From sequence record OZ035756.1: DNA of 64,000 nucleotides. One strand, 5' to 3'. The notes under the pieces were generated by a model that worked only from the letters and a program-made list of their open reading frames with translations, had not been told where the DNA came from and did not search any database. The position numbers and the translations under genes are program-made. Shown here piece by piece: positions 28,622-45,318 of this stretch (the first letter of the stretch is position 1; each line of letters opens with the position of its first letter). The stretch is from Tequatrovirus LF73P3.

Positions 28622-29635
28622 TCATTTATAATAACTTCGATGGTTTTCAAGATAAACCCTCTCAAGGAAGTCATCCCAGAAACCCATGTCTACTTTTTGC
28701 TGCATACCGTTCTTAGAAGCTTCAATGGATGCTGCTTCTACTTGATCGACCACATCTTCCAAAAACTCTTGAACAGTTTTAAATGGATGTTTACCCAACT
28801 TCACGTCGAGAATAAATGGAGCGTCTTGAAGTGGATAGACTAAGTCACCAGTTTTGTAAATTTCCAATAGTTGGAGTCCACCACGGCAAGCATGACTCAG
28901 AGCTTTCCAGTCAATGCCCTCATTCGCTTCAGCCTTACGAGCACGTTCGCCGTATTCAGCATCAAGTTTATTCAAAGATTGCTTAAGCTCGATAAGAGAA
29001 AGCGTTGTCTGATATTTACGACCCAACACAGTGTAGAACGTTTGTGGACCTGTTTTCTCATGATTATGGAACACCCATTCACAGAATTCGTTCTCTGGAA
29101 GACGATGCTTAATATCTTCAATCTTAGTTCGACGTTGCTTAATGGAACCGTCTTCTTGATAATCAACCCACTGATCAGGGATTTGATTAACTACTTTCAA
29201 TACATCACGTAATGCGGCCAAACGAGAACCCTTAACACCGTATTTAGAAGCTTGCTTGCGAACATATCCTAAGTAGGATTTCATGTTAGTCGTATAAAAA
29301 CGAGAACGATTGTCTTGAATAAACTTCCATACATCAGGCAAATCAGATTTAACTACCAGTTCAGGTGGAGTGTGGAGCATATCCAATGCTACAGTTTCAC
29401 CATCTGCTGCTAATTTAAAGAAATACTTAAGACTGTATAGTTCATGGTCAATATCATCTTTAGTGTTTTTAGATGATGTGTTGTTAGTGTTTTTACTCAT
29501 ATGCTCTTTAACATTTCCGATAAGAATATCACGAGCAGGAGGAACAAAGATTTCTTTAAAATCTACATCAGATTCTGGAGTAGAAGTTCCATAAAGATGA
29601 CTACCAAAATAGCTTTTCATTACTGTTTTCATCAT
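28622..29635 (-). CDS. Minimal nucleotidyltransferase (MNT/ANT-type) with C-terminal helical domain, 337 aa
   Basis: N-terminal signature GSHLYGTSTPESDVDF (GS-x3-G-x5-SD-V-D) plus downstream acidic LDMLH. Confidence 0.6.
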   Translation of the reverse strand: MMKTVMKSYFGSHLYGTSTPESDVDFKEIFVPPARDILIGNVKEHMSKNTNNTSSKNTKDDIDHELYSLKYFFKLAADGETVALDMLHTPPELVVKSDLPDVWKFIQDNRSRFYTTNMKSYLGYVRKQASKYGVKGSRLAALRDVLKVVNQIPDQWVDYQEDGSIKQRRTKIEDIKHRLPENEFCEWVFHNHEKTGPQTFYTVLGRKYQTTLSLIELKQSLNKLDAEYGERARKAEANEGIDWKALSHACRGGLQLLEIYKTGDLVYPLQDAPFILDVKLGKHPFKTVQEFLEDVVDQVEAASIEASKNGMQQKVDMGFWDDFLERVYLENHRSYYK

Positions 29636-30117
29636 TCAGCCTTATATTCAATAACAGGACATACTTTAGCTTTACGCGCTTTTAAAAATTCGACGATAAT
29701 AGATTTCTTGGGTTGAATAGGCTCAAGTCCATTTTTGATTCGTTCTTCGTTTTGTACAATGAGCTCAATTTCTTTATTGAGCTTTCGGTCGTTATATTTG
29801 TCTAACAACCAGGAAGGACCAATTACCGCCCCGACAGCAATAAGAACCATGACCGATAATGCTAAAATGCCTATACCAATTGAAGCTGGAATTAATGTCC
29901 ATAGACTACTAAAGACAAAGAATTTAATTAAAATTTCTTGGCCAATTATTGCAGCACCTGTTAAAGTTGCAAATCCAACAATTGAAACCGCTAATACCGG
30001 GAGAAACGTTTTCCAAAAATAAGCACATAACGTTTTTGGACGATTCCATGTGCTGTTAAATGCCGAGTAAATTTTAAAGTGCCAAGAGTTTTCATTAATA
30101 ATCATAATTATAATCAT
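29632..30117 (-). CDS. Membrane protein (161 aa), translationally coupled to the nucleotidyltransferase
   Basis: Several hydrophobic helices (FLPVLAVSIVGFATLTGAAIIG; IGILALSVMVLIAVGAVIG); stop overlaps NTase start. Confidence 0.5.
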   Translation of the reverse strand: MIIIMIINENSWHFKIYSAFNSTWNRPKTLCAYFWKTFLPVLAVSIVGFATLTGAAIIGQEILIKFFVFSSLWTLIPASIGIGILALSVMVLIAVGAVIGPSWLLDKYNDRKLNKEIELIVQNEERIKNGLEPIQPKKSIIVEFLKARKAKVCPVIEYKAE

Positions 30118-30635
30118 CCTTTCATTGAAGGTGTAACAGTTGTTAAATACTTAATCATAGCTTCAGCTTCTGATTTTGATAATGAAATTTCTCCATTGTT
30201 TTGACGAATAGAAATAAAATCCGGATGACGGTCACCACCAGCTTTTAAAACACACATATAAGTATCAGTTTCATCTTCAATATCTGAAATGATTGAAGCA
30301 GTTCCACATGAATGTGGTTTTTGATAAATCAATACAGCTTTTCTTCCACCGTTTGACTGCTCATAAACTTTTAACACATCAAACAAATCACTTCTTTTAT
30401 CAATAGCTAAGATGTTGTTTTCATCTTCAATGTTAAATCCTTCGGATACTTCATAAAGTGTCACCCATAAATCACCAATATCAATAACAGCGTTCACTTT
30501 TCCATGACTTTCAAGAGCATTACAAATTTTCTTAATTTCATCATAACTCATTTTAATAATATCATCTCCTTGAATAAAGAAGATGTCATTTTTAAATTCA
30601 ACGCGAATTAAACCACTTTCACTTGAAATAAACAT
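30114..30635 (-). CDS. Hypothetical protein (173 aa), weak paralog of upstream gene
   Basis: C-terminus SKSEAEAMIKYLTTVTPSM resembles TKDEAIALKTYLDSVIPTM of the 30642..31199 product. Confidence 0.45.
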   Translation of the reverse strand: MFISSESGLIRVEFKNDIFFIQGDDIIKMSYDEIKKICNALESHGKVNAVIDIGDLWVTLYEVSEGFNIEDENNILAIDKRSDLFDVLKVYEQSNGGRKAVLIYQKPHSCGTASIISDIEDETDTYMCVLKAGGDRHPDFISIRQNNGEISLSKSEAEAMIKYLTTVTPSMKG

Positions 30636-30641
30636 ATTTCC

Positions 30642-31199
30642 TCACTTTGAAATCATAGTTGGAATGACAGAATCAAGATAAGTCTTTAGCGCAATAGCTT
30701 CGTCTTTGGTAAATGTGACAATATATGAACGAAAATCATCAATTTGACGAATAGTTAAGACATCTCCATCTTCATAACATTTTGATACATTTAAAACAGT
30801 TTCATCATTTTGATTGCAAGCGTTAGTAATAATAGCATTGCAATTTTTGAGCCATTTTAAACTATGTTTTCTTTCATTAGAATAATAAAAATATTTAATC
30901 TTATCTATAAAACTATCCCAATGGATAACTGATAAACACATTGACTCACTTTTAATATTAAATCCTGGGCATGAAGAATAAAAATGAATTTTGTGCTCAT
31001 CATTGATGCTTACTATTTTATCAGTATAAGGATATTCTATTTGGATTAAATGAATGATTTCACTAGGCGTAAAATATAGCATATCGTCTTCTTGCGTCAA
31101 ACGATACATGTTATTTACTTTTTCTATAGCCAATTCACCAAAAAGCGGACTAACTTCTAATACTAATCGTTTCATATTGATTCTCTTCGACTCACTCAC
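30642..31199 (-). CDS. Hypothetical protein (185 aa); apparent GTG start
   Basis: First gene of a four-gene early operon; AGGAG RBS upstream of GTG. Confidence 0.45.
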   Translation of the reverse strand: MSESKRINMKRLVLEVSPLFGELAIEKVNNMYRLTQEDDMLYFTPSEIIHLIQIEYPYTDKIVSINDEHKIHFYSSCPGFNIKSESMCLSVIHWDSFIDKIKYFYYSNERKHSLKWLKNCNAIITNACNQNDETVLNVSKCYEDGDVLTIRQIDDFRSYIVTFTKDEAIALKTYLDSVIPTMISK

Positions 31200-31333
31200 A
31201 ATTACATACTCCTTTGAATAATATCAATAATGTTGTTCACCAGATTATAAGTAAACATTGGATAATTATATTGAATCATCACATACACAACAAACAAAAC
31301 TTTCATTCTCTTCTCCTTGGCAGTTGACAAGAT

Positions 31334-31366
31334 TACTATATCATAACCTTGCCAACTTGTAAACCA
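31334..31366 (-). promoter_or_regulatory. T4-type early promoter (operon 31199..28622)
   Basis: Minus strand GTTTAC-18 nt-TATAGT. Confidence 0.5.
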
Positions 31367-31529
31367 TTAAATGACGTTTTCAATAAAATTCTGAAGCTTT
31401 GTGTGAGCATCAACCATGATTTTCATTTCTTCCTTTGCGAAAGCTGTACCTCTTTCTCGAGCAGAATACTCATAGTCAGAAACTGCATTAGCATATTCTT
31501 CAATTAGCTTCATTAAAAACATCTGCTTT

Positions 31530-31724
31530 TCAGTTTTCATTATTCCACCTAATCATTTCAAGATATTGAACTAACTTAGCTTTGGATTTATCCAAATCCT
31601 TTTTAGCTGCTTCTATACCATCGTATGAGTATCCTTCACAATGCTCAACTGCTAATTGATATGAATCTATTTCAACATCACGTGCTAATTTAATAATTTT
31701 TTCAAACTGTTCACATGTTAGCAT
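31530..31724 (-). CDS. Hypothetical protein (64 aa)
   Basis: Small acidic ORF. Confidence 0.35.
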   Translation of the reverse strand: MLTCEQFEKIIKLARDVEIDSYQLAVEHCEGYSYDGIEAAKKDLDKSKAKLVQYLEMIRWNNEN

Positions 31725-31726
31725 AC

Positions 31727-31966
31727 TTAAACTCTCGTATTATGATCGATAATTTCATCAAGAAACATATCTAAAGCTTCTACAGCATTATCAACTTTAG
31801 CTTCAAATTTTTCAATACCTTTATTTGCAATGCCTGCCGAAAACCAAGCAAAGTCACTAAGTTCCTCATCTGCTTTGCGAATTAAAGCTACCAATTCTTT
31901 AATTTTATCTGCTTGTTCAATTCTAGTCATTATTCCACCACATATGAAAGAGAGAATATTGCACAC
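31727..31966 (-). CDS. Hypothetical protein (79 aa)
   Basis: Small ORF. Confidence 0.35.
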
Positions 31967-32118
31967 GCCATATGAGTTGCAGCTTCATCACACATATCAT
32001 AACGTTTCTTAAGAAGTTCTACAAGTTCTTCACTAGTAACTTCATCCATGTCGACGAAAAAATCACCATTAATGATGACGTAGATATTTCCTTCTTGATT
32101 GAGTGCTTCAATTTTCAT
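31930..32118 (-). CDS. Hypothetical protein (~62 aa)
   Basis: Start trimmed to [10 protein letters not shown] with AGGAGAA RBS; the track's 5' extension overlaps a promoter. Confidence 0.35.
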
Positions 32119-32145
32119 GATGTTCTCCTCTTTATCCGATGGTTG

Positions 32146-32178
32146 TATAGTATCACGGCTCAAATTGAAAGTAAACTG
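32146..32178 (-). promoter_or_regulatory. T4-type early promoter
   Basis: Minus strand GTTTAC-18 nt-TACTAT. Confidence 0.55.
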
Positions 32179-32192
32179 GTAAAATGAAAAAA

Positions 32193-32210
32193 GTCTCCCG
32201 AAGGAGACTA
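32193..32210 (-). terminator. Intrinsic terminator
   Basis: Minus strand AGUCUCC-UUCG-GGAGACU followed by UUUUUU. Confidence 0.7.
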
Positions 32211-32213
32211 ATG

Positions 32214-32600
32214 TTATTCGAGGGAAAGAAGATATTTGCTCTGGTAAAACATCCCAGTAATATCATCTATCGTGCTTTGAATGGCTGGAGGCATTTCTTT
32301 ATAAATGCTGTTAGATTGGTCTAGTATGTGATCAATCATTTTAATTGTATCGGTAGGAAGTTTACTGGCATCTGGAATAGAAGGCGTGTATTTTCTACCA
32401 GAATACCCTAAATATTGCTCACCAAATTTATCAATCAAATCTGGCAATTCAGAGAAAATAAAATCGTATGCTTTGTGTCTAGCATAACTTTTAGTTTCAA
32501 AATGTGCAGAATGAAAATAAGCTTGTGCAGCCATTAATAAACCTAAGTATTCATCTGCCTTTGAAGGTTTTCCACTTTGTGAAAAGTCGCTGAATTTCAT
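32214..32600 (-). CDS. Hypothetical protein (128 aa; T4 rI.-1 position)
   Basis: Synteny immediately downstream of rI. Confidence 0.45.
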
Positions 32601-32890
32601 TCAGTCTCCAATTTAATGTTCATAATTCTAGCGTATGATTGTGCCATCTCCGCGCCTCGCTCTATACATTCAAAATCGGAAGAGCACGGGTCATTTTTAT
32701 AAGTCGTTCGCATAAAACTATAGAACTGTTCAGATGATTCTACGCTTTTATTTTCAAAAAGCATATAAACGTGTCTAATACCAGATTCCATAAATTTATC
32801 AAAATGAGGATCGACATTCGCTTCAATTGGTGGAGATAAAGCAAACGCTAATCCTAGCATGGCAAATAGTGCCGTTGCTTTTAAGGCCAT
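32597..32890 (-). CDS. rI: Lysis-inhibition regulator RI
   Basis: 97 aa with N-terminal signal-anchor (MALKATALFAMLGLAFALSPPIEA); size and position as T4 rI upstream of tk. Confidence 0.8.
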   Translation of the reverse strand: MALKATALFAMLGLAFALSPPIEANVDPHFDKFMESGIRHVYMLFENKSVESSEQFYSFMRTTYKNDPCSSDFECIERGAEMAQSYARIMNIKLETE

Positions 32891-32902
32891 AAAGGCCTCC
32901 TA

Positions 32903-33115
32903 TCATTTTTGTCCTGTATTTACTTTATGCCGATGCACGGCCTTAACTTTATCAAGGTATTTTTCAAAATTTCGCAATCTAGTATAGTCTGCCGGAGATT
33001 GGTTGAGTGATACTTCTCGACGCAAAGCTGAAATGATATTTCCAACTTCCCTACGAATTTCATCTAATTGAAGAACAGTAAGATTGCGAAGTTGCTTTTC
33101 AGTTAATTGTAGCAT
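32903..33115 (-). CDS. Hypothetical protein (70 aa)
   Basis: ORF between rI and tk. Confidence 0.4.
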
Positions 33116-33157
33116 ATATACCCCTTTAGTTAGATAAACCTATTTATAACTTTTGCA

Positions 33158-33739
33158 CTAACCAAGCTTTTTAGTTAATTCATTCCAATGTTTTCTACAC
33201 AAAGAAACATAAATTTCATCACCAATACAGATTTGATTACCTTCTTTAACTGGCGTTCCATCTTCCATTAATCGAGCTGTCATAATAGCTTTTTTACCAC
33301 AATGACAAACTGCTTTTAGTTCAATAAGTTTATCTGCAATCGCCAAAAGTTCTTTAGAACCTTCAAATAATTTTCCAGCGAAATCAGTCCTTAGTCCATA
33401 AGCCATAACAGGAACATTATATGTATCAACAATTCGGCTTAATTGATGCACCTGTTCAGTTTTTAAAAACTGGGCTTCATCTACAAATACACAATGAATA
33501 TCCTTTTGTGCTTCAGCCCATTTATAGAACTCAAAAATATCCATATCATCCGTAATAATATTCGCTTCCTGCTTAATTCCAATGCGAGAAACGACTTCAC
33601 AGACAGAATCACGAGTATCAATAGCAGGCTTAAGAACTAATACACCCATTCCGCGTTCTTTATAATTATGCGCAGCAGTCAAAAGAGAAGCAGATTTTCC
33701 AGCATTCATTGTTGCGTAAGTAAAAATTAAACTCGCCAT
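33158..33739 (-). CDS. tk: Thymidine kinase
   Basis: 193 aa; P-loop MNAGKSASLL and zinc-ribbon CHCGKKA...CRKHW typical of type II thymidine kinases. Confidence 0.93.
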   Translation of the reverse strand: MASLIFTYATMNAGKSASLLTAAHNYKERGMGVLVLKPAIDTRDSVCEVVSRIGIKQEANIITDDMDIFEFYKWAEAQKDIHCVFVDEAQFLKTEQVHQLSRIVDTYNVPVMAYGLRTDFAGKLFEGSKELLAIADKLIELKAVCHCGKKAIMTARLMEDGTPVKEGNQICIGDEIYVSLCRKHWNELTKKLG

Positions 33740-33748
33740 ATCACCTTC

Positions 33749-33934
33749 TTAAAGCGTATTCACATAAGCTATTAATTCGTTTTCTTTCTTATCAAACCGA
33801 TCAGCAAATTCTTCTTGTTGATCGGGAGATAGCGGGCCGTATTCATCATAAAAGGTGTTTGCTTCTGTATGCTCATCTAGAAGTTCATGGATAAGCTCAA
33901 ACAATTTATCTTTTTGTTCTTTACTCAGACTCAT
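33749..33934 (-). CDS. Hypothetical acidic protein (61 aa)
   Basis: ORF. Confidence 0.35.
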   Translation of the reverse strand: MSLSKEQKDKLFELIHELLDEHTEANTFYDEYGPLSPDQQEEFADRFDKKENELIAYVNTL

Positions 33935-34100
33935 ATATTAATTTCCAGGAGTTTTAAAATAATTCGCTTTTGCTTAAATATTTCCATAGTTAAATGACCA
34001 GTATCTTTTTGACCGATTCCAATGGCAAAACCTTTATTGACAGCGAGTTCAATTAAATTATCAAGCTCACGTAACACTTCATATTGTAACTCAAAACTAT

Positions 34101-34328
34101 TCATTTCGGTTTACCTTCTTTAACGAAATCGGGATAAGGATAAAATCCTGAATAAAATCCTTCACCTTTATGATTGATGCATCCTTTATTAGAACAATAG
34201 CACCAATAATCGAAATCACAAGCCATTTCATCATTACATAAAGCAAAAACAACTGGCCATTCACACTTTTCGCAGTGGGCATTTTTAAGAATACTTGTTT
34301 GGCTCATAACCATGTAACCTTTAAACAA
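34101..34328 (-). CDS. Cys-rich small protein (75 aa)
   Basis: Multiple Cys pairs (CEKCEW...CNDEMACDFDYWCYCSNKGC). Confidence 0.4.
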   Translation of the reverse strand: MFKGYMVMSQTSILKNAHCEKCEWPVVFALCNDEMACDFDYWCYCSNKGCINHKGEGFYSGFYPYPDFVKEGKPK

Positions 34329-34516
34329 TATTCTTCTACGTGTTGTTTACGACCTTTCTTATCAATAAAGGTATATTCAACGAATGTTCCAATATAGTCT
34401 TTATCTACACCATGTGGACTATTAATTGGGCATTTAGTACGGCAAATGCGTTCCCATTGACGAATAATTTCCACTTTGTTTTTAGGATCAAACGGATGCG
34501 GGTAATGTACTTTCAT
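34304..34516 (-). CDS. Hypothetical protein (70 aa)
   Basis: ORF. Confidence 0.35.
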   Translation of the reverse strand: MKVHYPHPFDPKNKVEIIRQWERICRTKCPINSPHGVDKDYIGTFVEYTFIDKKGRKQHVEEYCLKVTWL

Positions 34517-34967
34517 AATCCACCACTATTAAATCAATATCAGGAGTAAACATGTCGATTAATTTAGAAACCTTATCCCAATCGCCGCCAGCAATACCGC
34601 AACCTATACGTGGAATGTAAATTACTGGTTTAAACAAAAGGGTTTCTGCCTGTAGATTTAATTCTATCATGCAGTTTACTAAAGCACCATAATCAAGATT
34701 AGGACCCGGTTCGTATTGTGTATACAGGTTATAGCATATACCAAATCCCGTAGGACTATGTTTAAAAACAATAGACATATCGCCTAATTTATCACGAGAA
34801 CCGTACTCGGTAGTGGTTTTATCTATTTCTAAAATTTTGGGATAGGCTCTTGCTAATTGACCCGCTACGCCAGAGCCCATTGTGTGGAAGCAATTGCACC
34901 CGTGCGCAATAATATTACCTTGAAGAAATAGGGCGACAATATCGCCCTTGATATATTTTACAATCAT
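34488..34967 (-). CDS. Macro-domain protein (candidate ADP-ribose binding/hydrolase), 159 aa
   Basis: Macro-domain-like motifs GNIIAHGCNCFHTMGSGVAGQLA and IPRIGCGIAGGDWD. Confidence 0.5.
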   Translation of the reverse strand: MIVKYIKGDIVALFLQGNIIAHGCNCFHTMGSGVAGQLARAYPKILEIDKTTTEYGSRDKLGDMSIVFKHSPTGFGICYNLYTQYEPGPNLDYGALVNCMIELNLQAETLLFKPVIYIPRIGCGIAGGDWDKVSKLIDMFTPDIDLIVVDYESTLPASV

Positions 34968-35311
34968 CTAGTACTCAATCCTCGATTATAAGAATCTACT
35001 AAACGGTCAACCATTGAATGACAAGCGGCTTTATCTTTCTCCTCCGCAACTGAACATTCTAAGGTATTCCACTTTTTAGCATATCGTTTTAACAATGTAT
35101 CATTTTTGTATCTGCTTGATTTATCTCTTTCTCCGTCTTTATATGCATATATTAATTTCTGCGCAAATTCAGCTTGGCATGCTTTATTTTTCCCACAATA
35201 ATCCGCGGCAGTACGGTTTACATACTCTCTAATTTCAGTATATGATGTATCTGCTAACGCAGAAGCAGAAAATGAAATTAATCCTATACATAAAACCAAA
35301 ATTTTAGTCAT
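34964..35311 (-). CDS. vs: Secreted protein (115 aa) in the position of T4 vs
   Basis: Signal peptide MTKILVLCIGLISFSASALA; size and synteny as T4 vs. Confidence 0.55.
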   Translation of the reverse strand: MTKILVLCIGLISFSASALADTSYTEIREYVNRTAADYCGKNKACQAEFAQKLIYAYKDGERDKSSRYKNDTLLKRYAKKWNTLECSVAEEKDKAACHSMVDRLVDSYNRGLSTR

Positions 35312-35849
35312 TTACTATTTCCAAAAGTTTATTATTTTTAAGGTAATTAGCCTTTTCTAGGACTTCAGAAGCATATTTAGAACCTGCTTTAACATTCCAT
35401 CCCGAATTATAAGAGGATATCGCCTTTCTTATATCGCCCTTATGTATATTTAACCAATAAGAAAGTTCAATGTACGCCCAGGAAGCTGAATTGGACCGTT
35501 TATTCAACATTCTTTTTATTTCAGCATCGGTCATATTATAACCAAGTTCCTTAACTCTTGCTCGCATAGTAGGCAAATAATTTTGGAACATTCCATAGGC
35601 ATGATGCTTTGGTTTAGATTTTAAATTAACTCCGGCAGAGCTTTCTTGCCATAAAATAGCAGCCATTATATGACCCAATCCGCTCTTGTGGATATTTTTG
35701 TGTGTTTTATATTTTCCATCCTTAGAAAATTGTTCCCCGAATTGATACGCGTAACGCATGTTATCGAGTTGGACATTACTGAAAGTATGCTCGGAGCTAT
35801 GTGCCATCATTGAAATGGCCAATAGACCAGCGAGTAGTGCTTTTCTCAT
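35304..35849 (-). CDS. Periplasmic lysozyme/transglycosylase-like protein (181 aa)
   Basis: Signal peptide; region AAILWQESSAGVNLKS resembles SLT-family catalytic E-S motif. Confidence 0.45.
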   Translation of the reverse strand: MRKALLAGLLAISMMAHSSEHTFSNVQLDNMRYAYQFGEQFSKDGKYKTHKNIHKSGLGHIMAAILWQESSAGVNLKSKPKHHAYGMFQNYLPTMRARVKELGYNMTDAEIKRMLNKRSNSASWAYIELSYWLNIHKGDIRKAISSYNSGWNVKAGSKYASEVLEKANYLKNNKLLEIVND

Positions 35850-35856
35850 GCTTACC

Positions 35857-36318
35857 TCATTGAGTTTTAATTACTGCTTTAGAAGCCTTTCCTGGTAAAC
35901 GACGGCTGTTGATAATTGCCATTCTACACTGAAGTGACGGGTCTTTGAACTTCGCATTAGGTTTACAAACTGTAAATCCAAGCCAAAGATTTCCATCTGT
36001 GATTTCTAAACGCCCAGGACGATATTCAACCCCATCAATAAAATCTTCGTCAATATCAGGGCGTGGAGGCATACTCAGGAATTCATTAACTTCTAAAACA
36101 TGGTCTTTTATTTTGTGGAATAATTCAAAAACATATGTCTCATCAATCTCCCGTTGAATTGCACGATCAAGAAGATGCTGAGAATATTTTAGATGAAACG
36201 ATGAGACCCCTGCTGCTTTTGATGCCTCACGAATCTCATTGTTAATTTGACGAAACTCCGACTCAAAGTGACGACGAAGCTTATTTCGACGGATAAAAAC
36301 TTCTGTGTTGATAGTCAT
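35857..36318 (-). CDS. regB: RegB sequence-specific endoribonuclease
   Basis: 153 aa; size and position as T4 regB with its own early promoter just upstream. Confidence 0.75.
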   Translation of the reverse strand: MTINTEVFIRRNKLRRHFESEFRQINNEIREASKAAGVSSFHLKYSQHLLDRAIQREIDETYVFELFHKIKDHVLEVNEFLSMPPRPDIDEDFIDGVEYRPGRLEITDGNLWLGFTVCKPNAKFKDPSLQCRMAIINSRRLPGKASKAVIKTQ

Positions 36319-36344
36319 GTTATTCTCCTCTTAACTGATAGAAA

Positions 36345-36376
36345 AATTATACCACAGTCAAGAGGAAAAGTAAACA
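36345..36376 (-). promoter_or_regulatory. T4-type early promoter upstream of regB
   Basis: Minus strand TTGTTTAC-18 nt-TATAAT. Confidence 0.65.
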
Positions 36377-36377
36377 A

Positions 36378-36698
36378 TTATTCTTTAAATCTAATCAATT
36401 TATTCATAGACTTTGAAACTTCTGCACGGACCTCATGTAGGTTTTTGAGCTGTTCAAGACGCTGCTCATAGTAAGCAATTTCATCTTCTTCGAGACAGTC
36501 CTGTGAATCTTCTTTAAGATAACTTGCATAGTCCTGGAAAGCTTTACGGACTACTTCTTGGAAGTCATCAAGACTTTGAATTTTCTTAGGAGCAACAGAT
36601 ACACGACGAGGGGCAGTATAATACTCATAACCAAACCCTGCGCTTAATTGAGCCATTAATATTTTTCCTCTGGTTGGAACACAGCACGACAAGCCCAC
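36378..36698 (-). CDS. Hypothetical protein (106 aa; vs.3 position)
   Basis: ORF. Confidence 0.4.
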
Positions 36699-36922
36699 AT
36701 ACTGGCTTCTTTGAGTTTCGTTTTAGCAATAGTTAACTGATCGAGACTTTCAGCATAATTCTTCGCGAATTCACAGTCTTCACAATTATCTAGCGCTTCC
36801 CAGAACTCATCATATAAAGCATCAAAGATAAGTCCTAAACGAACTTCAGCATCTTTGATAGCATTCACTTTACTGATTTTATCGTCAGTATGTGGCTTAT
36901 AACCTTTAATGTCTTCAATCAT
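36656..36922 (-). CDS. Hypothetical protein (88 aa; vs.4 position, candidate Acb2-like)
   Basis: Assignment by gene order only (fourth ORF after vs, counting regB); sequence not independently recognised. Confidence 0.3.
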
Positions 36923-37136
36923 ATTTTACTTCCTCACCTGTTTCCAAATCATATTCAACTAAACGAATAGGTTCATGAATGCCATATCCTTGAACAGAAA
37001 TTTCTGTCGTAGGATAAATTCCATTAATATCACCCATGTTCCACGCTTCATTAAATTGCTGTTCGCCTGAATTACTAAACCACTCGGCGAAAGCATTTAG
37101 CACATCTTCAGAACCTTCAATAATTATCTTTGCCAT
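36915..37136 (-). CDS. Hypothetical acidic protein (73 aa)
   Basis: ORF. Confidence 0.4.
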   Translation of the reverse strand: MAKIIIEGSEDVLNAFAEWFSNSGEQQFNEAWNMGDINGIYPTTEISVQGYGIHEPIRLVEYDLETGEEVKYD

Positions 37137-37498
37137 TACAAACTCTCGGTAAAGGTACGAGCGATAACGTCGCGCTGCTGTTCCGGAGTCAGAGAGTTAA
37201 AGCGAACTGCATAACCGGATACACGGATGGTCAGCTGCGGATATTTTTCCGGATGCTTAACTGCATCTTCCAGAGTTTCGCGACGCAGAACGTTAACGTT
37301 CAGGTGTTGACCACCCTCGATTTTAACTGTAGGTTGTGTTTCAATTTCAATTTCACGGGCATGCAAACCATAGAAAATTTCTGGGTCTACAAAAGAGTCC
37401 TCTTTAAAAGTTTTAGAGACAATAATTCGTGCTTGAATACCATCTTCAAAATAAATAGTACCTTTATGCGTGCCTTCAAGAATTTGATATGCTTTCAT
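37136..37498 (-). CDS. Glycyl-radical cofactor protein (GrcA/YfiD-like)
   Basis: C-terminal ~60 aa identical, as far as I recall, to E. coli GrcA including the radical motif RVSGYAV; this half is GC-rich unlike the AT-rich phage N-terminus. Confidence 0.9.
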
Positions 37499-37504
37499 AT
37501 AACC

Positions 37505-37885
37505 TCAATTAGAAAATAAATTTATCCAAGATTGTTCTTTAATTAAAAATGGCTCAGAATCATATGCCATTAAACTTTGGGTGATTAGTCCTTTAAAAGG
37601 TCCATCAATAAATTCCATGGTAAAATATGGAATTTTATTCATTAATCTTGCATTAGGAGCAGTGCACAAAACTCTGCATCCTTTGAATACACCTTTTTGT
37701 AATTTGTATTGCTTAGGATAAAATTCGCTCAAGACGTTGTTATTTGCCAAAATTTCAAAATGATTCACCAATTTATTTTTAACAGTTTTTGGCGAAAAAT
37801 AAAGATATTCGAAAAGTTGCGTGTCTGTCATCATTGCATTCCGATTATGAAAAACTGTGGACGAGTAATACCACCAATGCAGCAT
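37505..37885 (-). CDS. Hypothetical protein (126 aa)
   Basis: ORF. Confidence 0.4.
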   Translation of the reverse strand: MLHWWYYSSTVFHNRNAMMTDTQLFEYLYFSPKTVKNKLVNHFEILANNNVLSEFYPKQYKLQKGVFKGCRVLCTAPNARLMNKIPYFTMEFIDGPFKGLITQSLMAYDSEPFLIKEQSWINLFSN

Positions 37886-38421
37886 TTACTATTGCAACAG
37901 TGGTGCACAGTTTCAATATGAATATCGTAAATTTTATCCATATCAGGAGATTTAACAGGCTCATCAATTATATACAAAATTCGTGAAAGCGATAAACCTC
38001 TGAACTTGCTACCTCTATTTCCAACAAAACTACGGACAGAATCAGTAAATAAACGGAATCGAATATCATCACTAGAATAACGAGAAAATTCTTTTTTAAT
38101 GTGTCCCGCAGAAATTTTAGCGTAAGCTGAAGTATTAGAAAGAACAATAACTGTTCCACCGTCATACAACCAATTAGCGGCAAAATTAGTTACTGCAGCT
38201 GATTTACCGGATTGTCTGCCACCATCTAAACGAAGTGTACAATATTCTTTAAATAAATGCGACGAATCAGGTACATAAAATCCACTATTACAAATTTCTT
38301 CTACTCTAGCATCAGAATGGTGTGTAAAAGCATTCATCAGGGATAGATAAGGACCAGTTAAAAATGTTCTCATTTTATTCTCTCTAAATTTGGGCCATTC
38401 CATGGCGCATGAATTGTCCAT
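37831..38421 (-). CDS. P-loop protein (196 aa)
   Basis: Walker A-like GGRQSGKS. Confidence 0.45.
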   Translation of the reverse strand: MDNSCAMEWPKFRENKMRTFLTGPYLSLMNAFTHHSDARVEEICNSGFYVPDSSHLFKEYCTLRLDGGRQSGKSAAVTNFAANWLYDGGTVIVLSNTSAYAKISAGHIKKEFSRYSSDDIRFRLFTDSVRSFVGNRGSKFRGLSLSRILYIIDEPVKSPDMDKIYDIHIETVHHCCNSKCCIGGITRPQFFIIGMQ

Positions 38422-38550
38422 TTCTGTATTTACCCATTACCGCACTTGGGCTCGACCTTATTACAGGTTGGCGGGAATCCCTCATAGAATCATGAGGTCC
38501 AGCTTGTTCCCATGTTATTTGAATGTAAATAGGCCTAAGTATCGGACTTA

Positions 38551-39129
38551 TTAATTACCACGGGCTGCATTAGCAACGGCGTAAGCATACTGAACATTAG
38601 CGTCTTTAAACGTACCTTTAGAGGTATCTATTTCTGCCTTAAAGCCGCCTTTAGCCATAACATCAGCAAATTCTTTACGGAAAGCCATTGCATCAAGACC
38701 TTTCCATGATGATTTATGCTTGGCAAATTCAAGACCGGCGAAGTTGACAGCCTTAGCCAATTTATTGTCAATAACCCATTTACCAGCTTTAGGCACAAAC
38801 ACCGGGCCTTTCTGCTTAGAGAATAGTTTTAAATTCCAGCGACGAAGGTCACTGTCAGCTTTAACAAAAGCTGCGTCCAAGTTACTAGCAACAACATCTT
38901 GAATATGGCCAAATTTAAGCCCATCAACTTCAATATTTAGATCGGTACGCCAGCGAAGTCCTTCCCAAGCGAAGGCTTTAAAATCAGAAGCTTTTGTGGC
39001 TAGATATCGTTCAAGTGGAGCAGTTTTAGGGTCAAAGCCGTTTCCGCCACGATAAGTCCACTCGTCCTTATTAATGCCTTGAGCTTTTCCTGCAAAGGCC
39101 TCGGCGATAAATTCTTTATACGTTTTCAT
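38551..39129 (-). CDS. Internal-protein-like head protein with capsid targeting sequence (IPIII-sized, 192 aa)
   Basis: N-terminus MKTYKEFIAE matches the T4 internal-protein targeting consensus, with prohead protease-type site after FIAE. Confidence 0.6.
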   Translation of the reverse strand: MKTYKEFIAEAFAGKAQGINKDEWTYRGGNGFDPKTAPLERYLATKASDFKAFAWEGLRWRTDLNIEVDGLKFGHIQDVVASNLDAAFVKADSDLRRWNLKLFSKQKGPVFVPKAGKWVIDNKLAKAVNFAGLEFAKHKSSWKGLDAMAFRKEFADVMAKGGFKAEIDTSKGTFKDANVQYAYAVANAARGN

Positions 39130-39157
39130 GTGTTTCCTTGTTTGTTTTGATAGAGTA

Positions 39158-39190
39158 ATTATACCATATTAATACTTAAGCGTAAACTGT
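39158..39190 (-). promoter_or_regulatory. T4-type early promoter
   Basis: Minus strand GTTTAC-18 nt-TATAAT. Confidence 0.55.
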
Positions 39191-39418
39191 TTAAGCTTTA
39201 CCGCCAGAAATAATTCCGAAGTTGTTAAAATCGTATCCAATATCGTCAACATCTACTTTAGGGCTTGCTACAACATAAGCAATTTCACTACGTTTTGCAT
39301 AGGTGTTTATTTCTTTACCATTGCCGCCTAAGAAAGAATACCCATTACGTTTTAATGAGCCAAAATCTTCGGCATCACCAATGAAAGCTTTAACTTTAAA
39401 TTTGGGGGCCTTTGGCAT
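39191..39418 (-). CDS. Hypothetical protein (~75 aa)
   Basis: Track ORF 39191..39517 trimmed to internal Met to avoid overlap with denV. Confidence 0.3.
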   Translation of the reverse strand: MPKAPKFKVKAFIGDAEDFGSLKRNGYSFLGGNGKEINTYAKRSEIAYVVASPKVDVDDIGYDFNNFGIISGGKA

Positions 39419-39458
39419 CTGCTTCAGCGATAAATTCTTGATACATTTTAATTTTTCC

Positions 39459-39872
39459 TTAGTAAATTGATTTACCATAGTATTTGTACCAAGTAGGACG
39501 TTGAGCAATTTTTTCATCTAAGCGTGCTTGACTTATCGCAATGGACGCTTCGTCCGGGACATAATTATTACGAAATTCGGCAGGGATGTCGGAAATATCC
39601 TGGACAGTCGTGTCCTTGATTTTGAAACCACGTTTCAAGCATTCAGCGATTAGCTCGATTTGACGTAAACGTAAAAATTCGAGCTTGTCGTAAAAGAATG
39701 TTACGTGACCTGTGCCTAATATAAATGTTGGAGAGATTTTAAAATCCTTTACACATTTACCGTTTTGAACATGTTTACGGACTGCACCAAATACGCGTGG
39801 TAATTCACGATACTCTGCCATAAGATGTTGGTCGGTCAGTTCAGAAACAAGTGTTAAATTGATACGGGTCAT
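39459..39872 (-). CDS. denV: Endonuclease V (pyrimidine-dimer DNA glycosylase)
   Basis: [12 protein letters not shown]...[12 protein letters not shown]... closely matches T4 DenV as I recall it; start at MTRINL. Confidence 0.93.
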
Positions 39873-39898
39873 AATTTCCTCCAAGTAGTTGATGAATG

Positions 39899-39930
39899 TA
39901 TAGTATCAAAACCCTTGGAGGAAGTAAACA

Positions 39931-39931
<1 letters not shown>
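39899..39931 (-). promoter_or_regulatory. T4-type early promoter upstream of denV
   Basis: Minus strand GTTTAC-18 nt-TACTAT. Confidence 0.55.
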
Positions 39932-40733
<802 letters not shown>

Positions 40734-41189
40734 TTAAAAGAGGTTGTTCATTATTCGGTAAAGTGAAGGACCCATCACATATTGCCACTGAGTACGAGGA
40801 ATAAGAGCAAAAGCATCCATCTCTGGAATCATAACGCCATCTTTATTTTCAAAATAAGACTCGCAGCGGCAATTTCTAAACATCTCATGCTCTACTGGAA
40901 CCGTATAATAAAATAACTGTAAGTCTTTATTACTAGAATATTTAAATACACCTAGGTCTTCTAGAAGGTCTGGATTATAATTGCTAAAGCCAGTCTCTTC
41001 TAAGCATTCTCTTCGTGCTGCGTCTAGTGCGCTTAAATCAGAATTTTCTATACGGCCCTTTGGAATATCCCAGCGATGTGCCATCATTCCAGGTTTACGA
41101 GAACCGGTAACTCGTCCCATAAATAAATCTTTATCTTCTGTCATAAAGATAATACCAGCTGATAATGTTTTCATTTTAATTTCCTGCAT
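40734..41189 (-). CDS. nudE: Nudix hydrolase NudE
   Basis: Nudix box GRIENSDLSALDAARRECLEETGF (GX5EX7REUXEEXGU). Confidence 0.85.
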   Translation of the reverse strand: MQEIKMKTLSAGIIFMTEDKDLFMGRVTGSRKPGMMAHRWDIPKGRIENSDLSALDAARRECLEETGFSNYNPDLLEDLGVFKYSSNKDLQLFYYTVPVEHEMFRNCRCESYFENKDGVMIPEMDAFALIPRTQWQYVMGPSLYRIMNNLF

Positions 41190-41659
41190 TCAGTGATAAA
41201 ATTATTTAAATTTTGAGCATATTTCTTTTCATCAAAAATCTTTTGTTGTCTGCGCATCCGCCATGGCATTTCAATGAACATGTACCATATTCCTGATAAT
41301 ATTGATGCTGTAAAAATATTAACAAGTATGGTTAAAAGAATCCAATCTCCTATTCTGTCCATTGGATTTTTTATAAAAAAGTAAAATACGAATGATGACA
41401 CAGGAAGACTAATGATATACCACAGAATCATAATCTTATCTGTGAACCATTCAGCATTCGTTAACTTAGCACGACCATTATGAATACACACGAATTTATC
41501 ATCTGTTACAGTAGATGGCTTAACTGCTTGATATCCCATTCTAAACTCCCTAATTAATCGTTTCTTTGTATCTTCAGAACAGCCGCTCCAGTCAACTCTA
41601 TCAACTGAAATGCCATCGTCCCCATCATCTAAATCATACCAGCGAGTTTTTAAAATCAT
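41171..41659 (-). CDS. Membrane protein (162 aa), member of a three-gene paralog array
   Basis: Two TM helices; C-terminal tail KKYAQNLNNFITECRKLK shared with the next two ORFs. Confidence 0.45.
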   Translation of the reverse strand: MILKTRWYDLDDGDDGISVDRVDWSGCSEDTKKRLIREFRMGYQAVKPSTVTDDKFVCIHNGRAKLTNAEWFTDKIMILWYIISLPVSSFVFYFFIKNPMDRIGDWILLTILVNIFTASILSGIWYMFIEMPWRMRRQQKIFDEKKYAQNLNNFITECRKLK

Positions 41660-42030
41660 TTAATTTTCCTACAATCACTCACAAACTCTTCCATTGATTC
41701 TTTTTCAATATAAGACATATAGCTATTATATTCCTTTAATTGTATTTTGTAATTCTTTTTTCTTTGCCAATTTATTTTAAAATTATCATAATGAAAATAT
41801 AACATGGTACCAAAGAATGAAAATAATGAAATTGCTATAGTATAATGAAGTTCACTCCAAACTTCTATTATATCTACTATACCGCTGACGTTACTGCGGA
41901 TGTTTAAAATAAAACAGTCAATTAACAATCCAATAAAACTACCCGCAAGAGCTGCAGCCAATGCCACAGCAAAAATTAAAAATGACTCAGAAAAAGAATA
42001 TTTGACTTTATTTAGTCTTGGCTTTTGCAT
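41656..42030 (-). CDS. Membrane protein (124 aa), paralog array
   Basis: TM helices; C-terminal tail SYIEKESMEEFVSDCRKIK. Confidence 0.45.
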   Translation of the reverse strand: MQKPRLNKVKYSFSESFLIFAVALAAALAGSFIGLLIDCFILNIRSNVSGIVDIIEVWSELHYTIAISLFSFFGTMLYFHYDNFKINWQRKKNYKIQLKEYNSYMSYIEKESMEEFVSDCRKIK

Positions 42031-42425
42031 CGTGATTCCTTAACAAATTTCATAATTTCATTAAATTCATACTTAGCAAGTTTAATCTGGTGTTCCTTTT
42101 TAATCTTTTTACACTGGGCTTTCCAATCACGTACGCGTTTACGATAATGTCTTCCTTGATACCAGTATCCTACCCAATTTACGGGTACTAATAAAAGTGG
42201 AACTACCAATGGAAGAATTAGCATTAACACAAGTATTTCGCCAGAATCAATATCAGTCATAACATCTAAAACACCTCCAATAATCAATAGAATTACAAAT
42301 GATATAAGTATAACAGGACCTATTAATACATCGGTAGAAATTATCTGGTGCTTTGATTCATACTTCACAGGTTTACTTGGAAGGTATAGTGATGGCTTTG
42401 ACATATTCTCTACATTCCTTAACAA
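42012..42425 (-). CDS. Membrane protein (137 aa), paralog array
   Basis: TM helices; C-terminal tail AKYEFNEIMKFVKESRCK. Confidence 0.45.
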   Translation of the reverse strand: MLRNVENMSKPSLYLPSKPVKYESKHQIISTDVLIGPVILISFVILLIIGGVLDVMTDIDSGEILVLMLILPLVVPLLLVPVNWVGYWYQGRHYRKRVRDWKAQCKKIKKEHQIKLAKYEFNEIMKFVKESRCKSQD

Positions 42426-42987
42426 ATTTTTCTAATAATAAATCGCTTTCAAAATTGGGATTTTCCACGAATTTATCAAAAAGATCATCAACAATAGTTA
42501 AGATATTCTTTTTACTAAGAATACGCTTATTTTCATGCTTCGTTTCAGAATCAACTATAAGAGTAAAGAAATATTTCTTTCCCTGAAATTTTACCGTAGT
42601 ATCAATATAAAATAAATTTGACTTTTGTAAATTACGTTTAAACCATGCGTCACTTAAACTATAAACGCCAAGATAATCATAATCGTCATTTAAATAACAA
42701 ACTGTCCATTCAGGAGAAATGAAATCAGTAAATTCAACATCAAAATCACATGTCAATGAATGAATTGATTCAATACTTTTAATGAGTATTCCAGGACGTA
42801 TTAAAGACTTTTTACCTCTACAAAATCTTCCAGAAAGACTTTCATCAGTTTCATATGAAGACCCCCAATAATAATTACGTCCTTCTGCCATACGTTTAAG
42901 AGCATTTAGTAATTGGTCTGGAACATCAACCTGTCTTTGGAACTCTTCAAACATTGAATTGAAATCACTTTGCATTTTCATTTTCAT
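42373..42987 (-). CDS. Hypothetical protein (204 aa)
   Basis: ORF. Confidence 0.45.
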   Translation of the reverse strand: MKMKMQSDFNSMFEEFQRQVDVPDQLLNALKRMAEGRNYYWGSSYETDESLSGRFCRGKKSLIRPGILIKSIESIHSLTCDFDVEFTDFISPEWTVCYLNDDYDYLGVYSLSDAWFKRNLQKSNLFYIDTTVKFQGKKYFFTLIVDSETKHENKRILSKKNILTIVDDLFDKFVENPNFESDLLLEKFVKECREYVKAITIPSK

Positions 42988-43006
42988 TCCTATTTACTCC
43001 AAGTAA

Positions 43007-43024
43007 TAGGGGCCGAAGCCCCTT
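43007..43024 (-). terminator. Intercistronic GC hairpin (GGGGCUUCGGCCCC)
   Basis: Perfect hairpin with UUCG loop on minus strand. Confidence 0.45.
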
Positions 43025-43028
43025 ATCA

Positions 43029-43622
43029 TTATTTCAGAGAATTAATGTATTCCTGGACATCGGCAGAGGTAGTTTCAACCCCGGAAATATTACCGTTAAA
43101 GGTTTCAACTCGAGCAAGAGTATCTTCAATATCAACCTTAGTCAGCGCTGCAATTTCAACTACATCATCAGCAGTACTAATTCCAAGGGCATTTGCTGCG
43201 CGAGTTTCACGGATATATTCCAATTTAACTGCAAGTTCTTGCCGAGCATCATCTAACTCAACTACTTTCTTGGCGATTTCAATTCGCATTTCAGCATAAC
43301 CATCAGCTTTAGTAGTCAACTGTTCAGCTGTTCGACGATATAGCAAGCCGAGTTTAGCGTGCATTGTTACATCTTGACCTTCAGAAAGAAGTTTACGAAT
43401 TTCACGCTCTTTTGATTCGGCCTGTCGATTCTTTTCGATAACAAGTTCACGAATACGCTTTTCTTCATTAATAGATTTAACAGAAGCAGTTTTTAGATCT
43501 TTAATTTTATCAAGTAGTTTTGCTGCTGCAGCAGTATACTGTTCTTCAACAGATAAATTTTTAGCCATAGCAGAACCAAGTTTAGTGCGAATAAACTCAA
43601 CAATTTTCTTCAGTGTGTTCAT
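43029..43622 (-). CDS. Coiled-coil protein (197 aa), possibly PspA/IM30-like
   Basis: Long amphipathic helices with charge periodicity; resemblance to PspA is impressionistic. Confidence 0.35.
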
Positions 43623-43664
43623 AGTATTTCCTTAGGTTGATTAAAAATAAAATCTGTGGAAGAA

Positions 43665-44210
43665 TTATATCATACTATTTAAGAGATGTAAACTATTTTT
43701 AATTTTACAAATTCGTTCAGCTTCTTCAACAGCGGCGGCGATAATGCTTTTAGCTATAGGAGTATTAATACTAGTAGCTTTTACACTTAACACGATTTCT
43801 TTATCTTTACTAGGCCAACCCCACGATTTTTCACCATGAGTGCCTTTAATTACAGCAGACACCTCAAGTGAGCATCCATTATCACATGTTTTTACATTAA
43901 CAACCCAAGGATCACTTTTCTCAACCGGTTTATCAAACGGTTTATCCCAGTAAATATTAAGAATACGTGGGACATCAAATACAGCAGGACAAATCTTAAC
44001 TGTAAGACCTTCGCTTTCTAGCCAATTAATAAGAGGGCGTTCATACATGCGGCGATGTGGGCTTCGGACTCGACAAGCCTTGTGCCCATTGCTTGCGGCT
44101 TCACTAAGCTGTTCTAATACCTGCTTTTGCATTATTGATAAGATACCATCAAAAGATTTTTCGGAAGTTTCATTCAGTTCTGTATAAAGAGACATAACAG
44201 TTTTCCTCAA
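43665..44210 (-). CDS. Hypothetical protein (181 aa)
   Basis: ORF. Confidence 0.45.
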   Translation of the reverse strand: MRKTVMSLYTELNETSEKSFDGILSIMQKQVLEQLSEAASNGHKACRVRSPHRRMYERPLINWLESEGLTVKICPAVFDVPRILNIYWDKPFDKPVEKSDPWVVNVKTCDNGCSLEVSAVIKGTHGEKSWGWPSKDKEIVLSVKATSINTPIAKSIIAAAVEEAERICKIKNSLHLLNSMI

Positions 44211-44251
44211 GTTATAGGCTCATAATATCTCAATCATGAGCCTATGTAAAC

Positions 44252-44527
44252 TTATTTCATATTATTGAAATATTCTTCTGCGATTTCGTCGTTATCGTGG
44301 TAAACTTTAGAAGACAGTTTAACATAACCTTCTGCCGTGAACATATTAATCACAACCTTTACAGTATACCACTGACCGTCTTCATTACCCATTACTGCGT
44401 AAGTTTCAAACATCGGATGATCAGGACCGATAACTTTAATATCATTCACTGTACGACCGAAATCTTCTGAAACACATTTCATAAAGAAGTTGAACAGTTC
44501 GCCGTAATTATCCATTTTATTCTCCAA
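44252..44527 (-). CDS. Hypothetical protein (91 aa)
   Basis: ORF directly downstream of early promoter at ~44570. Confidence 0.45.
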   Translation of the reverse strand: MENKMDNYGELFNFFMKCVSEDFGRTVNDIKVIGPDHPMFETYAVMGNEDGQWYTVKVVINMFTAEGYVKLSSKVYHDNDEIAEEYFNNMK

Positions 44528-44557
44528 GTTGTTTTCTGTATCAGTAGTTGATAGTTG

Positions 44558-44590
44558 TATAGTACCATGGAAGAACAGGGATGTAAACCA
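44558..44590 (-). promoter_or_regulatory. T4-type early promoter
   Basis: Minus strand GTTTAC-18 nt-TACTAT; near-identical to the element at ~2090. Confidence 0.6.
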
Positions 44591-44715
44591 TTTTGTGAAA
44601 AAAATTTTTAAAAGTTTTAGGGAATTCTAGGGAGGGAAGGGGCGATTAAAGGATAGGATAATATATTATAAAGGGTAGAAACTAAATGATGCCTAGAGAG
44701 GTCCAGAAAGGTCTA

Positions 44716-44740
44716 GATACCAAAAAGCCCTATCATTTAG
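44716..44740 (-). terminator. Intrinsic terminator downstream of the 187-aa targeting-sequence gene
   Basis: Minus strand CCCUAUC-UAAAU-GAUAGGG followed by CUUUUU. Confidence 0.6.
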
Positions 44741-44754
44741 ATAGGGATTTAAAA

Positions 44755-45318
44755 TTATTTATCTAGTTTAGTTATTATAGCTTCGGCAGCAGCTTTTAGC
44801 TTAGATGCGGTGTTAATACGATTTTTAATTTCAGTATACGCATCGCCAAGAACGTCGAGGCTATCAGAATAAACACTTACACTATTGCGTTCGCTATTTG
44901 AAATAGAACCTTTAGTTTTACGATCAAAATCAGTGTACACGTCTTGAAGATCACGGGCTGCCTTCTTTGCATCATCCAATGCATCAAGAGCTTTATTCAA
45001 AGCATTAACGTATTTTTTAGTGTCGAACATATTCTTAGAAATTTTAACAGGTGCACGTTCAGGAGTAGCTAAGGCAGATTTAGGAACCTGAGCGCCTGAT
45101 GCTAATTTCTTAGAAATTTTGAAAAATGCTTTATTGAATTTATTTTCTTGACTCATCGTAAAAGAACTATTATCAATGTTATACATTTCAATAGCTTTAG
45201 CTTTCCACTTAAGAAAATCGCCACGGTCTTTTGGGTCCAATTGGAAGAATACTTTAGTAAGATCTGCTTCAGATGGTAATTTTGCTGCTTCGGTTAAAAA
45301 TTCGGCATAGGTTTTCAT
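44755..45318 (-). CDS. Additional internal-protein-like gene with capsid targeting sequence (187 aa)
   Basis: N-terminus MKTYAEFLTE|AAK carries the targeting consensus and a protease-type LTE site; bracketed by terminators at ~45412 and ~44716. Confidence 0.55.
   Translation of the reverse strand: MKTYAEFLTEAAKLPSEADLTKVFFQLDPKDRGDFLKWKAKAIEMYNIDNSSFTMSQENKFNKAFFKISKKLASGAQVPKSALATPERAPVKISKNMFDTKKYVNALNKALDALDDAKKAARDLQDVYTDFDRKTKGSISNSERNSVSVYSDSLDVLGDAYTEIKNRINTASKLKAAAEAIITKLDK

Follow-up and report, generated by a model that had tools for sequence, protein, structure and literature searches.

The gene vs.6 of the T4-like phage Tequatrovirus LF73P3 raises the question of how the distal half of an AT-rich phage gene came to carry the nucleotide sequence of a bacterial chromosome. 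We examined this gene within a stretch of 64,000 nucleotides (sequence record OZ035756.1; the whole stretch is called the window below). Judged by its sequence, the gene is the ortholog of vs.6 (Y06I) of phage T4 in a T4-like phage (Tequatrovirus), and 119 of the 120 residues of its product are those of the T4 protein. A preliminary description of the locus had mentioned Y06I as a T4 homolog of GrcA; the gene is no novelty of this phage, but vs.6/Y06I itself. We consider it likely that vs.6 is a diverged phage homolog of grcA in which the segment encoding the glycyl-radical domain was replaced by host grcA, in at least two independent events and probably in a recurring manner.

The vs.6 product is a small stand-alone protein (~14 kDa) and does not lie within a larger glycyl radical enzyme. 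It matched PF01228 (Gly_radical) over residues 60-101 with 67.2 bits (cut-off 22.2), and the RVSGYAV fingerprint occupied residues 92-98. The match to phrog_1209 was full-length (211.6 bits; residues 1-120 on profile positions 1-121), and the solved structure of E. coli GrcA (PDB 6OWR) was matched over residues 22-120 with an E value of 5e-42. The predicted radical site, Gly95, is equivalent to Gly102 of E. coli GrcA and to Gly734 of pyruvate formate-lyase (PFL); the radical role of this glycine is taken from the literature (PMC8683613). The vs.6 gene was matched by 1,459 records of the phage collection, and full-length identity of at least 90%, patch included, was found in ~650 sequenced E. 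coli T-even phages.

The protein and the gene were then compared with E. coli GrcA and with grcA of E. coli K-12. Residues 61-120 of the vs.6 product were identical to residues 68-127 of E. coli GrcA at all 60 positions, including RVSGYAV. At the nucleotide level, gene nt 184-350 matched K-12 grcA at 167 of 167 positions, whereas the preceding 183 nt matched at 85 of 183 (46%) and the final 13 nt at 9 of 13, the four differences being synonymous. A max-chi-square scan placed the breakpoint at gene nt 184 (value 118), and the contrast in identity between the two parts gave a Fisher p of 8e-36. The matching segment was present in grcA of all 5,426 complete E. coli genomes (5,426/5,426). GC content rose from 0.328 in the first 180 nt of the gene to 0.503 in the last 183 nt, with a mean of 0.351 over the window, and no more than 0.4% of all 183-nt segments of the 64 kb reached that value. 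The preliminary description had equated the product of the last ~60 codons with the E. coli GrcA C-terminus and had proposed a nucleotide alignment and a sliding GC plot as checks; both bore it out, the first with a sharp junction at nt 184 and the second with a shift that is an outlier in the window. The host identity of the 3’ half was thus confirmed as real and far beyond chance. Megablast of the rest of the window against E. coli chromosomes gave no other match. The jump in GC was rejected as a sufficient criterion by itself, because vs.6 of phage RB43 rises from 0.38 to 0.50 at only 82% identity to the host gene. The amino-acid make-up of the module thus accounts for part of the jump, and the diagnostic signal is nucleotide identity rather than GC. 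An Rfam search returned no family overlapping vs.6, so that an explanation at the RNA level was unsupported.

The preliminary description had interpreted the gene as a phage-specific N-terminus fused to a host module. This did not hold for the N-terminal half. Although no Pfam or NCBIfam model was matched by the N-half alone in a single-sequence search, alignment of the phage N-half profile with the bacterial GrcA N-half profile (hhalign) gave a probability of 93.6% and an E value of 2e-7 over 47 columns with 30% identity. On this profile evidence vs.6 is a full-length, diverged phage grcA homolog with an internal patch replaced by host sequence. Since the two N-halves are homologous, the event was a patch replacement in a pre-existing homolog and not a domain fusion. 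The 5’ junction of the patch lies at the EGGQHLN motif, where the similarity between phage and host DNA starts, and the 3’ junction lies ~13 nt before the stop codon. At the stop codon of vs.6, to which the start of vs.5 is coupled, homology to the host locus therefore ends; beyond it the loci are unrelated, the phage continuing with vs.5. Judged from the aligned sequences, such junctions would be expected of homologous strand exchange that can reach only as far as the homology does, and not of a domain fusion. Compared with E. coli GrcA, with which it shares the 60 C-terminal residues, the 167 identical nucleotides, a homologous N-half and the small stand-alone form, the window protein is 7 residues shorter and ~30% identical in its N-half. 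The genomic settings also differ, vs.6 lying in an early-gene cluster of the phage and E. coli grcA adjoining ung.

Conservation of the protein was considered as a source of the identity, using phages that carry the same module at lower nucleotide identity. In RB43, a Pseudotevenvirus that infects E. coli, the stretch corresponding to the patch differed by one residue; its nucleotides were 82% identical to E. coli grcA, and the longest in-register exact run was 20 nt. RB16-like loci encoded identical residues at 84% nucleotide identity and a synonymous divergence (dS) of 1.44, and T5-like phages were ~74% identical. The RB43 and RB16-like genes thus agree with the window gene in kind, length, host species and (nearly) in the residues of the radical domain, but with their 82-84% identity to the host gene they model the unconverted state. 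Because RB43 encodes nearly the same residues at 82% nucleotide identity, selection on the protein cannot, from this comparison, explain the identity of the patch. In a comparison of 63 IMG/VR loci with 81 bacterial grcA genes, long exact matches to a bacterial sequence (71-175 nt) occurred in T4-type loci only; runs in the other loci were mostly 35 nt or shorter, the longest reaching 50-68 nt. An exact run of 56 nt between an oral-metagenome phage (L022) and a Haemophilus metagenome-assembled genome was set aside, similar runs being found among unrelated enterobacterial grcA genes.

A second set of phages gave the same picture with another host. In Jiaodavirus (KPV15, Nispero, AM_K2 and others), the same gene occupies the equivalent position, its N-half again being AT-rich and its 3’ half GC-rich, and the boundaries of the patch coincide with those in the E. 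coli phages within a few bases. The KPV15 and Nispero patches were 97.6% identical to grcA of K. pneumoniae and 87-88% identical to that of E. coli. The window patch was 100% identical to E. coli grcA and 88.6% to that of K. pneumoniae, which is the distance separating the two host genes. The K. pneumoniae reference was a chromosome filed as a 5.37-Mb plasmid in PLSDB (CP125156.1), and the K. aerogenes reference was NCTC10006 (LR134122.1), whose grcA is annotated as truncated owing to an assembly frameshift. The K. pneumoniae grcA segment was matched at 95% or more by at least 65 phage records. A panel of 30 enterobacterial and Pasteurellaceae grcA 3’ halves was compared with all phage records, and the best 60 of 547 records were considered; among these matches, all those at 95% or more were Klebsiella phages against K. 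pneumoniae, and the output was dominated by E. coli-type patches matching Citrobacter amalonaticus at ~91%. Two T-even lineages each hold a copy of the sequence of their own host, which requires at least two host-to-phage events, and the Klebsiella patch is an independent second one. As separate observations, the vs.6 homolog of KPV15 (KY000080/NC_055715; locus L026, 1499..1859) is out of frame, with 361 nt compared to 363 nt in its relatives, and the gene is intact in the relatives AM_K2, M21a and Nispero, so KPV15 carries either a sequencing error or a recent pseudogene. PLSDB contains further whole or partial chromosomes filed as plasmids, of which CP125156.1 and LR134122.1 are examples.

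We further investigated the direction of the exchange and how often it took place. Between E. coli and K. pneumoniae, the two halves of grcA have dS values of 0.71 and 0.55; the halves diverge alike between species, which means that the mosaic is not in the bacterial gene, and the direction is from host to phage. Nineteen E. coli-type phage patches were then compared with 7 Escherichia alleles. Private changes within the phage patches comprised 11 GC-to-AT and 1 AT-to-GC, and Mosigvirus patches carried more AT-ward private changes than Tequatrovirus patches. These AT-biased changes are the decay of the patch toward phage composition.

The patches did not all carry the same host allele. T4 has a run of 178 nt identical to the common “T51” allele of E. 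coli (found in LF82 and 2013C-4187), whereas the window patch is the “C51” allele of K-12; the two phages differ accordingly at a CGC/CGT site, with T4 having the commoner T and the window the K-12-type C. Beyond the host-identical 3’ patch and the gene-cluster position that they share, the T4 gene differs from the window gene by P54 in place of T54 and by a longer host-identical run, which reaches GAA at the 3’ end, while the window gene has two additional phage-type bases at the 5’ junction. The patch of the phage locus L006 combines T51 with A114, as does E. coli B4103-1, and that of Shfl2 combines A35 with T51, as does Escherichia sp. L066. No exact E. coli allele was found for the L006 patch, the best match being 98.4% with one private change and two junction sites. 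Four of the 7 variants of the Escherichia alleles were also found among the 19 phage patches, an overlap for which a rough estimate, limited to 7 host alleles and 19 phages, gave a chance probability, among synonymous variants, of P ~0.02-0.05. At the 3’ edge of the patch, 5 sites formed at least 10 host/phage mosaic haplotypes in the 19 phages, whereas the interior was nearly invariant.

Comparison between phage genera pointed the same way. Between Tequatrovirus and Mosigvirus, dS fell from 0.39 in the N-half to 0.07-0.13 in the patch (3-5 times lower), where sliding identity reached its peak of 0.96; neighbouring genes lay at 0.65-0.85. In Jiaodavirus, the patch was more divergent than the N-half, which is expected if different Klebsiella alleles were donors. 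These sequence comparisons suggested that conversion by the host was probably repeated among the E. coli phages. The two possibilities named in the preliminary description, a recent host-to-phage transfer and ongoing conversion, are both compatible with the Klebsiella patch and the differing E. coli alleles.

Other explanations were weighed against the same data. Merging of host reads into a phage contig is suggested by the perfect identity to the host and by the presence of host DNA in phage preparations. It is extremely improbable, since ~650 phage genomes that were sequenced independently, among them that of T4, show the same in-frame mosaic, phage-type sequence flanks the patch on both sides within one open reading frame (ORF), and phage-specific variants are found inside the patch and at its edges. 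A transfer in the opposite direction, by which the 3’ half of enterobacterial grcA would be of phage origin, finds a precedent in the bidirectional host-phage exchange proposed for cyanophage psbA (PMC1484495). We nevertheless regard it as very unlikely: the composition of the patch is host-like inside a phage of 35% GC, both halves of bacterial grcA are similarly divergent between species, the gene is present in every one of the E. coli genomes and across Enterobacterales and Pasteurellaceae, and the changes private to phages lead away from the host state by AT-biased decay. Similarly, the extreme conservation of the radical domain as a protein in all phage and bacterial homologs could reflect an ancient capture in a T-even ancestor, with the identity kept by purifying selection on protein or codon usage. 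There is hardly any room for this explanation, because phage and host differ by 0-1 synonymous changes at ~43 synonymous sites while RB43/RB16-like phages have the same residues at a dS of ~1.4. Moreover, the patches of E. coli phages and Klebsiella phages differ as the host genes do (dS 0.87-0.94; host 0.55), and against a phage background of 35% GC the patches are visibly decaying toward AT.

The remaining alternative is one recent capture per host genus followed by phage-phage spread in co-infections, with later mutation and shuffling in place of ongoing host conversion, and several observations weigh on its side or against the reading that we prefer. The 5’ junction is nearly the same in every E. 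coli-type patch. Phages and E. coli have few polymorphisms in common, every one a synonymous transition, and these possibly arose by recurrent mutation. The N-half is also better conserved between Tequatrovirus and Mosigvirus (0.88-0.93) than the flanking genes, which indicates exchange of the whole gene, and the presence of the same patch in both genera could, from the sequences, reflect a single capture and subsequent phage-phage recombination. Such recombination is visible in FL44, which is classed as Tequatrovirus but resembles Mosigvirus between vs.8 and vs.5 and becomes Tequatrovirus-like (0.93-1.00) downstream of ~36780; it is an inter-genus phage-phage recombinant with a junction near vs.6. 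Exchange with the host should be limited in T4 by its breakdown of host DNA and its discrimination against DNA that contains cytosine, and recombination is deduced here from sequences alone. Strict tracking of the isolation host was rejected, as Nispero was isolated on K. aerogenes and its patch is 97.6% identical to K. pneumoniae compared to 92.8%. For PKO111, isolated on K. oxytoca, the patch is 89.8% identical to K. pneumoniae and no donor was found in the panel; in the sequences compared, host matching holds at the level of genus or species and not strictly for the isolation host. The window protein, at 154.6 bits over residues 20-120, also missed the equivalog cut-off of 170 of TIGR04365 (NCBIfam GrcA; IPR011140), a shortfall that is due to the diverged N-half (E. 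coli GrcA scores 234). Even so, a single capture per genus appears unlikely. T4 and the window perfectly match different extant E. coli alleles over 167-178 nt, the allele combinations of L006 and Shfl2 are found in Escherichia, diversity is near zero within the patch but combinatorial at its 3’ edge, and the Jiaodavirus patch is more diverse than the N-half.

The replacement of the radical-domain segment by host grcA would have proceeded as follows. The ancestral phage gene would have been a full-length, AT-rich, diverged grcA homolog. Gene nt 184-350 would then have been replaced by chromosomal grcA through homologous (initially homeologous) recombination or gene conversion, this tract, from EGGQHLN to a few codons before the stop, being presumably the sole part of the gene similar enough to pair with the host gene. 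The sources would be E. coli for Tequatrovirus and Mosigvirus, and K. pneumoniae for Jiaodavirus. T-even phages have very active homologous recombination (UvsX, UvsY, gp46/47) and recombine with cloned homologous DNA. Fragments of host DNA from early infection may invade vs.6 wherever pairing is possible, and the putative machinery would be T4 UvsX/UvsY acting on these fragments. The initial homeologous exchange, between sequences of ~80% identity, would seldom occur; thereafter 170 nt of perfect identity would ease re-conversion, so that some lineages would have a “fresh” patch and others (RB43, T5-like) none. Between conversions, the patch would decay toward the AT-rich composition of the phage.

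A stronger form of this reading is that the radical-domain half of the T-even gene is continuously re-templated from the chromosome of the infected enterobacterium, being reset upon AT-biased decay. We put it forward tentatively, as a possibility to be taken seriously rather than one that we would favour. If true, a standing, homology-driven channel of host-to-phage conversion would exist in strictly virulent phages that destroy host DNA, and a phage metabolic gene would be held in exact register with host PFL and the PFL-activating enzyme. It would also be an enteric counterpart of cyanophage psbA exchange, measurable in T4 and E. coli. Re-templating may be adaptive, the two residues that separate the E. 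coli-type and Klebsiella-type modules, E66L and K70E in phage numbering, being kept host-matched, or it may be a neutral by-product of homology; such adaptive value as the patch has is one that we infer.

The function of the window protein is assigned by analogy with T4 Y06I, from which it differs by one residue. According to Wagner et al. (2001), as summarised in PMC8683613, E. coli YfiD and T4 Y06I are radicalised by the PFL-activating enzyme and restore PFL that has been cleaved by oxygen. By this analogy, the window protein would be radicalised at Gly95 by the PFL-activating enzyme of the host and would dock on PFL whose radical domain had been cut off by oxygen, with activity restored. 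The outcome would be that fermentative energy metabolism is sustained in the infected cell. A phage copy of grcA would make sense because the infected cell no longer expresses its own.

The gene vs.6/Y06I and its biochemistry are already known, and the process is of a known kind as well. Zeidner et al. reportedly described host-phage intragenic recombination in cyanophage psbA/psbD in 2005. In T4-like cyanophages, intragenic recombination between host and phage with patchy GC was described for psbA/psbD (Sullivan et al. 2006, PMC1484495). Like these genes, vs.6 is a metabolic gene of a T4-like myovirus, is patchy in GC and has exchanged segments with the copy in the host. It contains a host-identical segment of the ORF bounded by diverged homologous sequence, and independent events are found in different phage-host pairs (Tequatrovirus/Mosigvirus on the one hand and Jiaodavirus on the other). 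It differs in belonging to virulent enteric T-evens, which destroy host DNA, in having a patch with 100% identity to an extant allele of the host where psbA/psbD exchange was inferred statistically, and in showing the same domain-edge boundaries in two phage genera, each matching its own host genus. The literature on Y06I, yfiD and grcA in T4 yielded only citations of the 2001 biochemistry, an earlier mention being possible in the 2003 T4 genome review or in the 2019/2022 GrcA papers; we found there no report of the nucleotide identity between vs.6 and grcA, of a host-templated patch or of host-specific recurrence.

Strictly lytic phages that degrade host DNA are usually seen as nearly closed to exchange with the host, and vs.6 offers a clean, datable case of chromosomal DNA flow into such phages. 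T4 and grcA moreover form a tractable system for the rates and genetic requirements of host-to-phage conversion, which cyanophage psbA never allowed. There is a practical side too. A 2026 typing paper chose grcA as a pan-genome core marker for the detection of E. coli Straboviridae by qPCR (PMC12845203). The most conserved “core gene” of these phages owes its conservation partly to being host DNA, and PCR markers or read-mapping filters placed in the 3’ half of vs.6 cross-react with the host; primers there would amplify E. coli.

The layout of the locus is given in the following table. The gene order vs.8-vs.7-vs.6-vs.5-vs.4-vs.3-regB, with denV upstream of vs.8, is T4-like, vs.6 being flanked by the small genes vs.7 and vs.5, and the synteny of vs.6 is kept in T4, EP01, Mosigvirus and FL44. 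The 2 kb around vs.6 showed 93% identity to T4 and up to 98% to other Tequatrovirus genomes.

Table 1. Features of the vs.6 locus, in window coordinates.
Feature	Position	Strand	Remarks
vs.6 / Y06I coding sequence	37136..37498	-	Intact ATG-to-TAA ORF, 120 codons plus TAA; GrcA/YfiD family
5’ phage-type part, codons 1-61	37316..37498	-	GC 0.33; diverged homolog of the GrcA N-half
Host-derived patch, gene nt 184-350, codons 62-117	37149..37315	-	GC 0.51; encodes the glycyl-radical domain
Gly95 codon in RVSG*YAV, predicted radical site	37214..37216	-	By alignment to E. coli GrcA
3’ phage-type tail	37136..37148	-	ACC GAG AGT TTG TAA; host ACT GAA AGC CTG TAA
Shine-Dalgarno-like GAGG, 4 nt 5’ of the vs.6 ATG	37503..37506	-	Read from the sequence; overlaps the vs.7 stop
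vs.5 ortholog	36915..37136	-	phrog_1986; start coupled to the vs.6 stop (TAATG overlap)
vs.7 ortholog, upstream of vs.6 in the same tight transcription unit	37505..37885	-	phrog_2049

The vs.6 gene looks to be co-transcribed with vs.8 and vs.7. A scan of the region for sigma-70-like promoters gave no convincing promoter immediately 5’ of vs.6. The top regional candidate was at 39158..39186 on the minus strand (TTTACG-17-TATAAT with an upstream TG, 10/12), 5’ of a 192-aa ORF at 38551..39129.

Some further features of the window were recorded. Two other GC-rich stretches, 45378..45621 and 20676..20878, were accounted for by no tRNA or Rfam family. A 45-nt intergenic stretch 5’ of vs.8 (38431..38475; GC ~0.48) was 97.8% identical to pRHB39-C03_2 (CP057073.1), a non-mobilizable 137-kb plasmid of E. 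coli. The same plasmid showed 95% identity to the tRNA-Tyr gene of the window (46901..46987; stretch 46895..46992). About 229 plasmids of E. coli and Shigella had a match of 90-95% within 24700..49600; these matches are probably the tRNA-Tyr gene, and the plasmids are possibly phage-plasmids. The tRNA-Tyr gene belongs to a cluster of nine tRNA genes (Arg, Tyr, Met, Thr, Ser, Pro, Gly, Leu and Gln) at 46110..47565 on the minus strand, which explains the GC-rich peak at 46861..47391.

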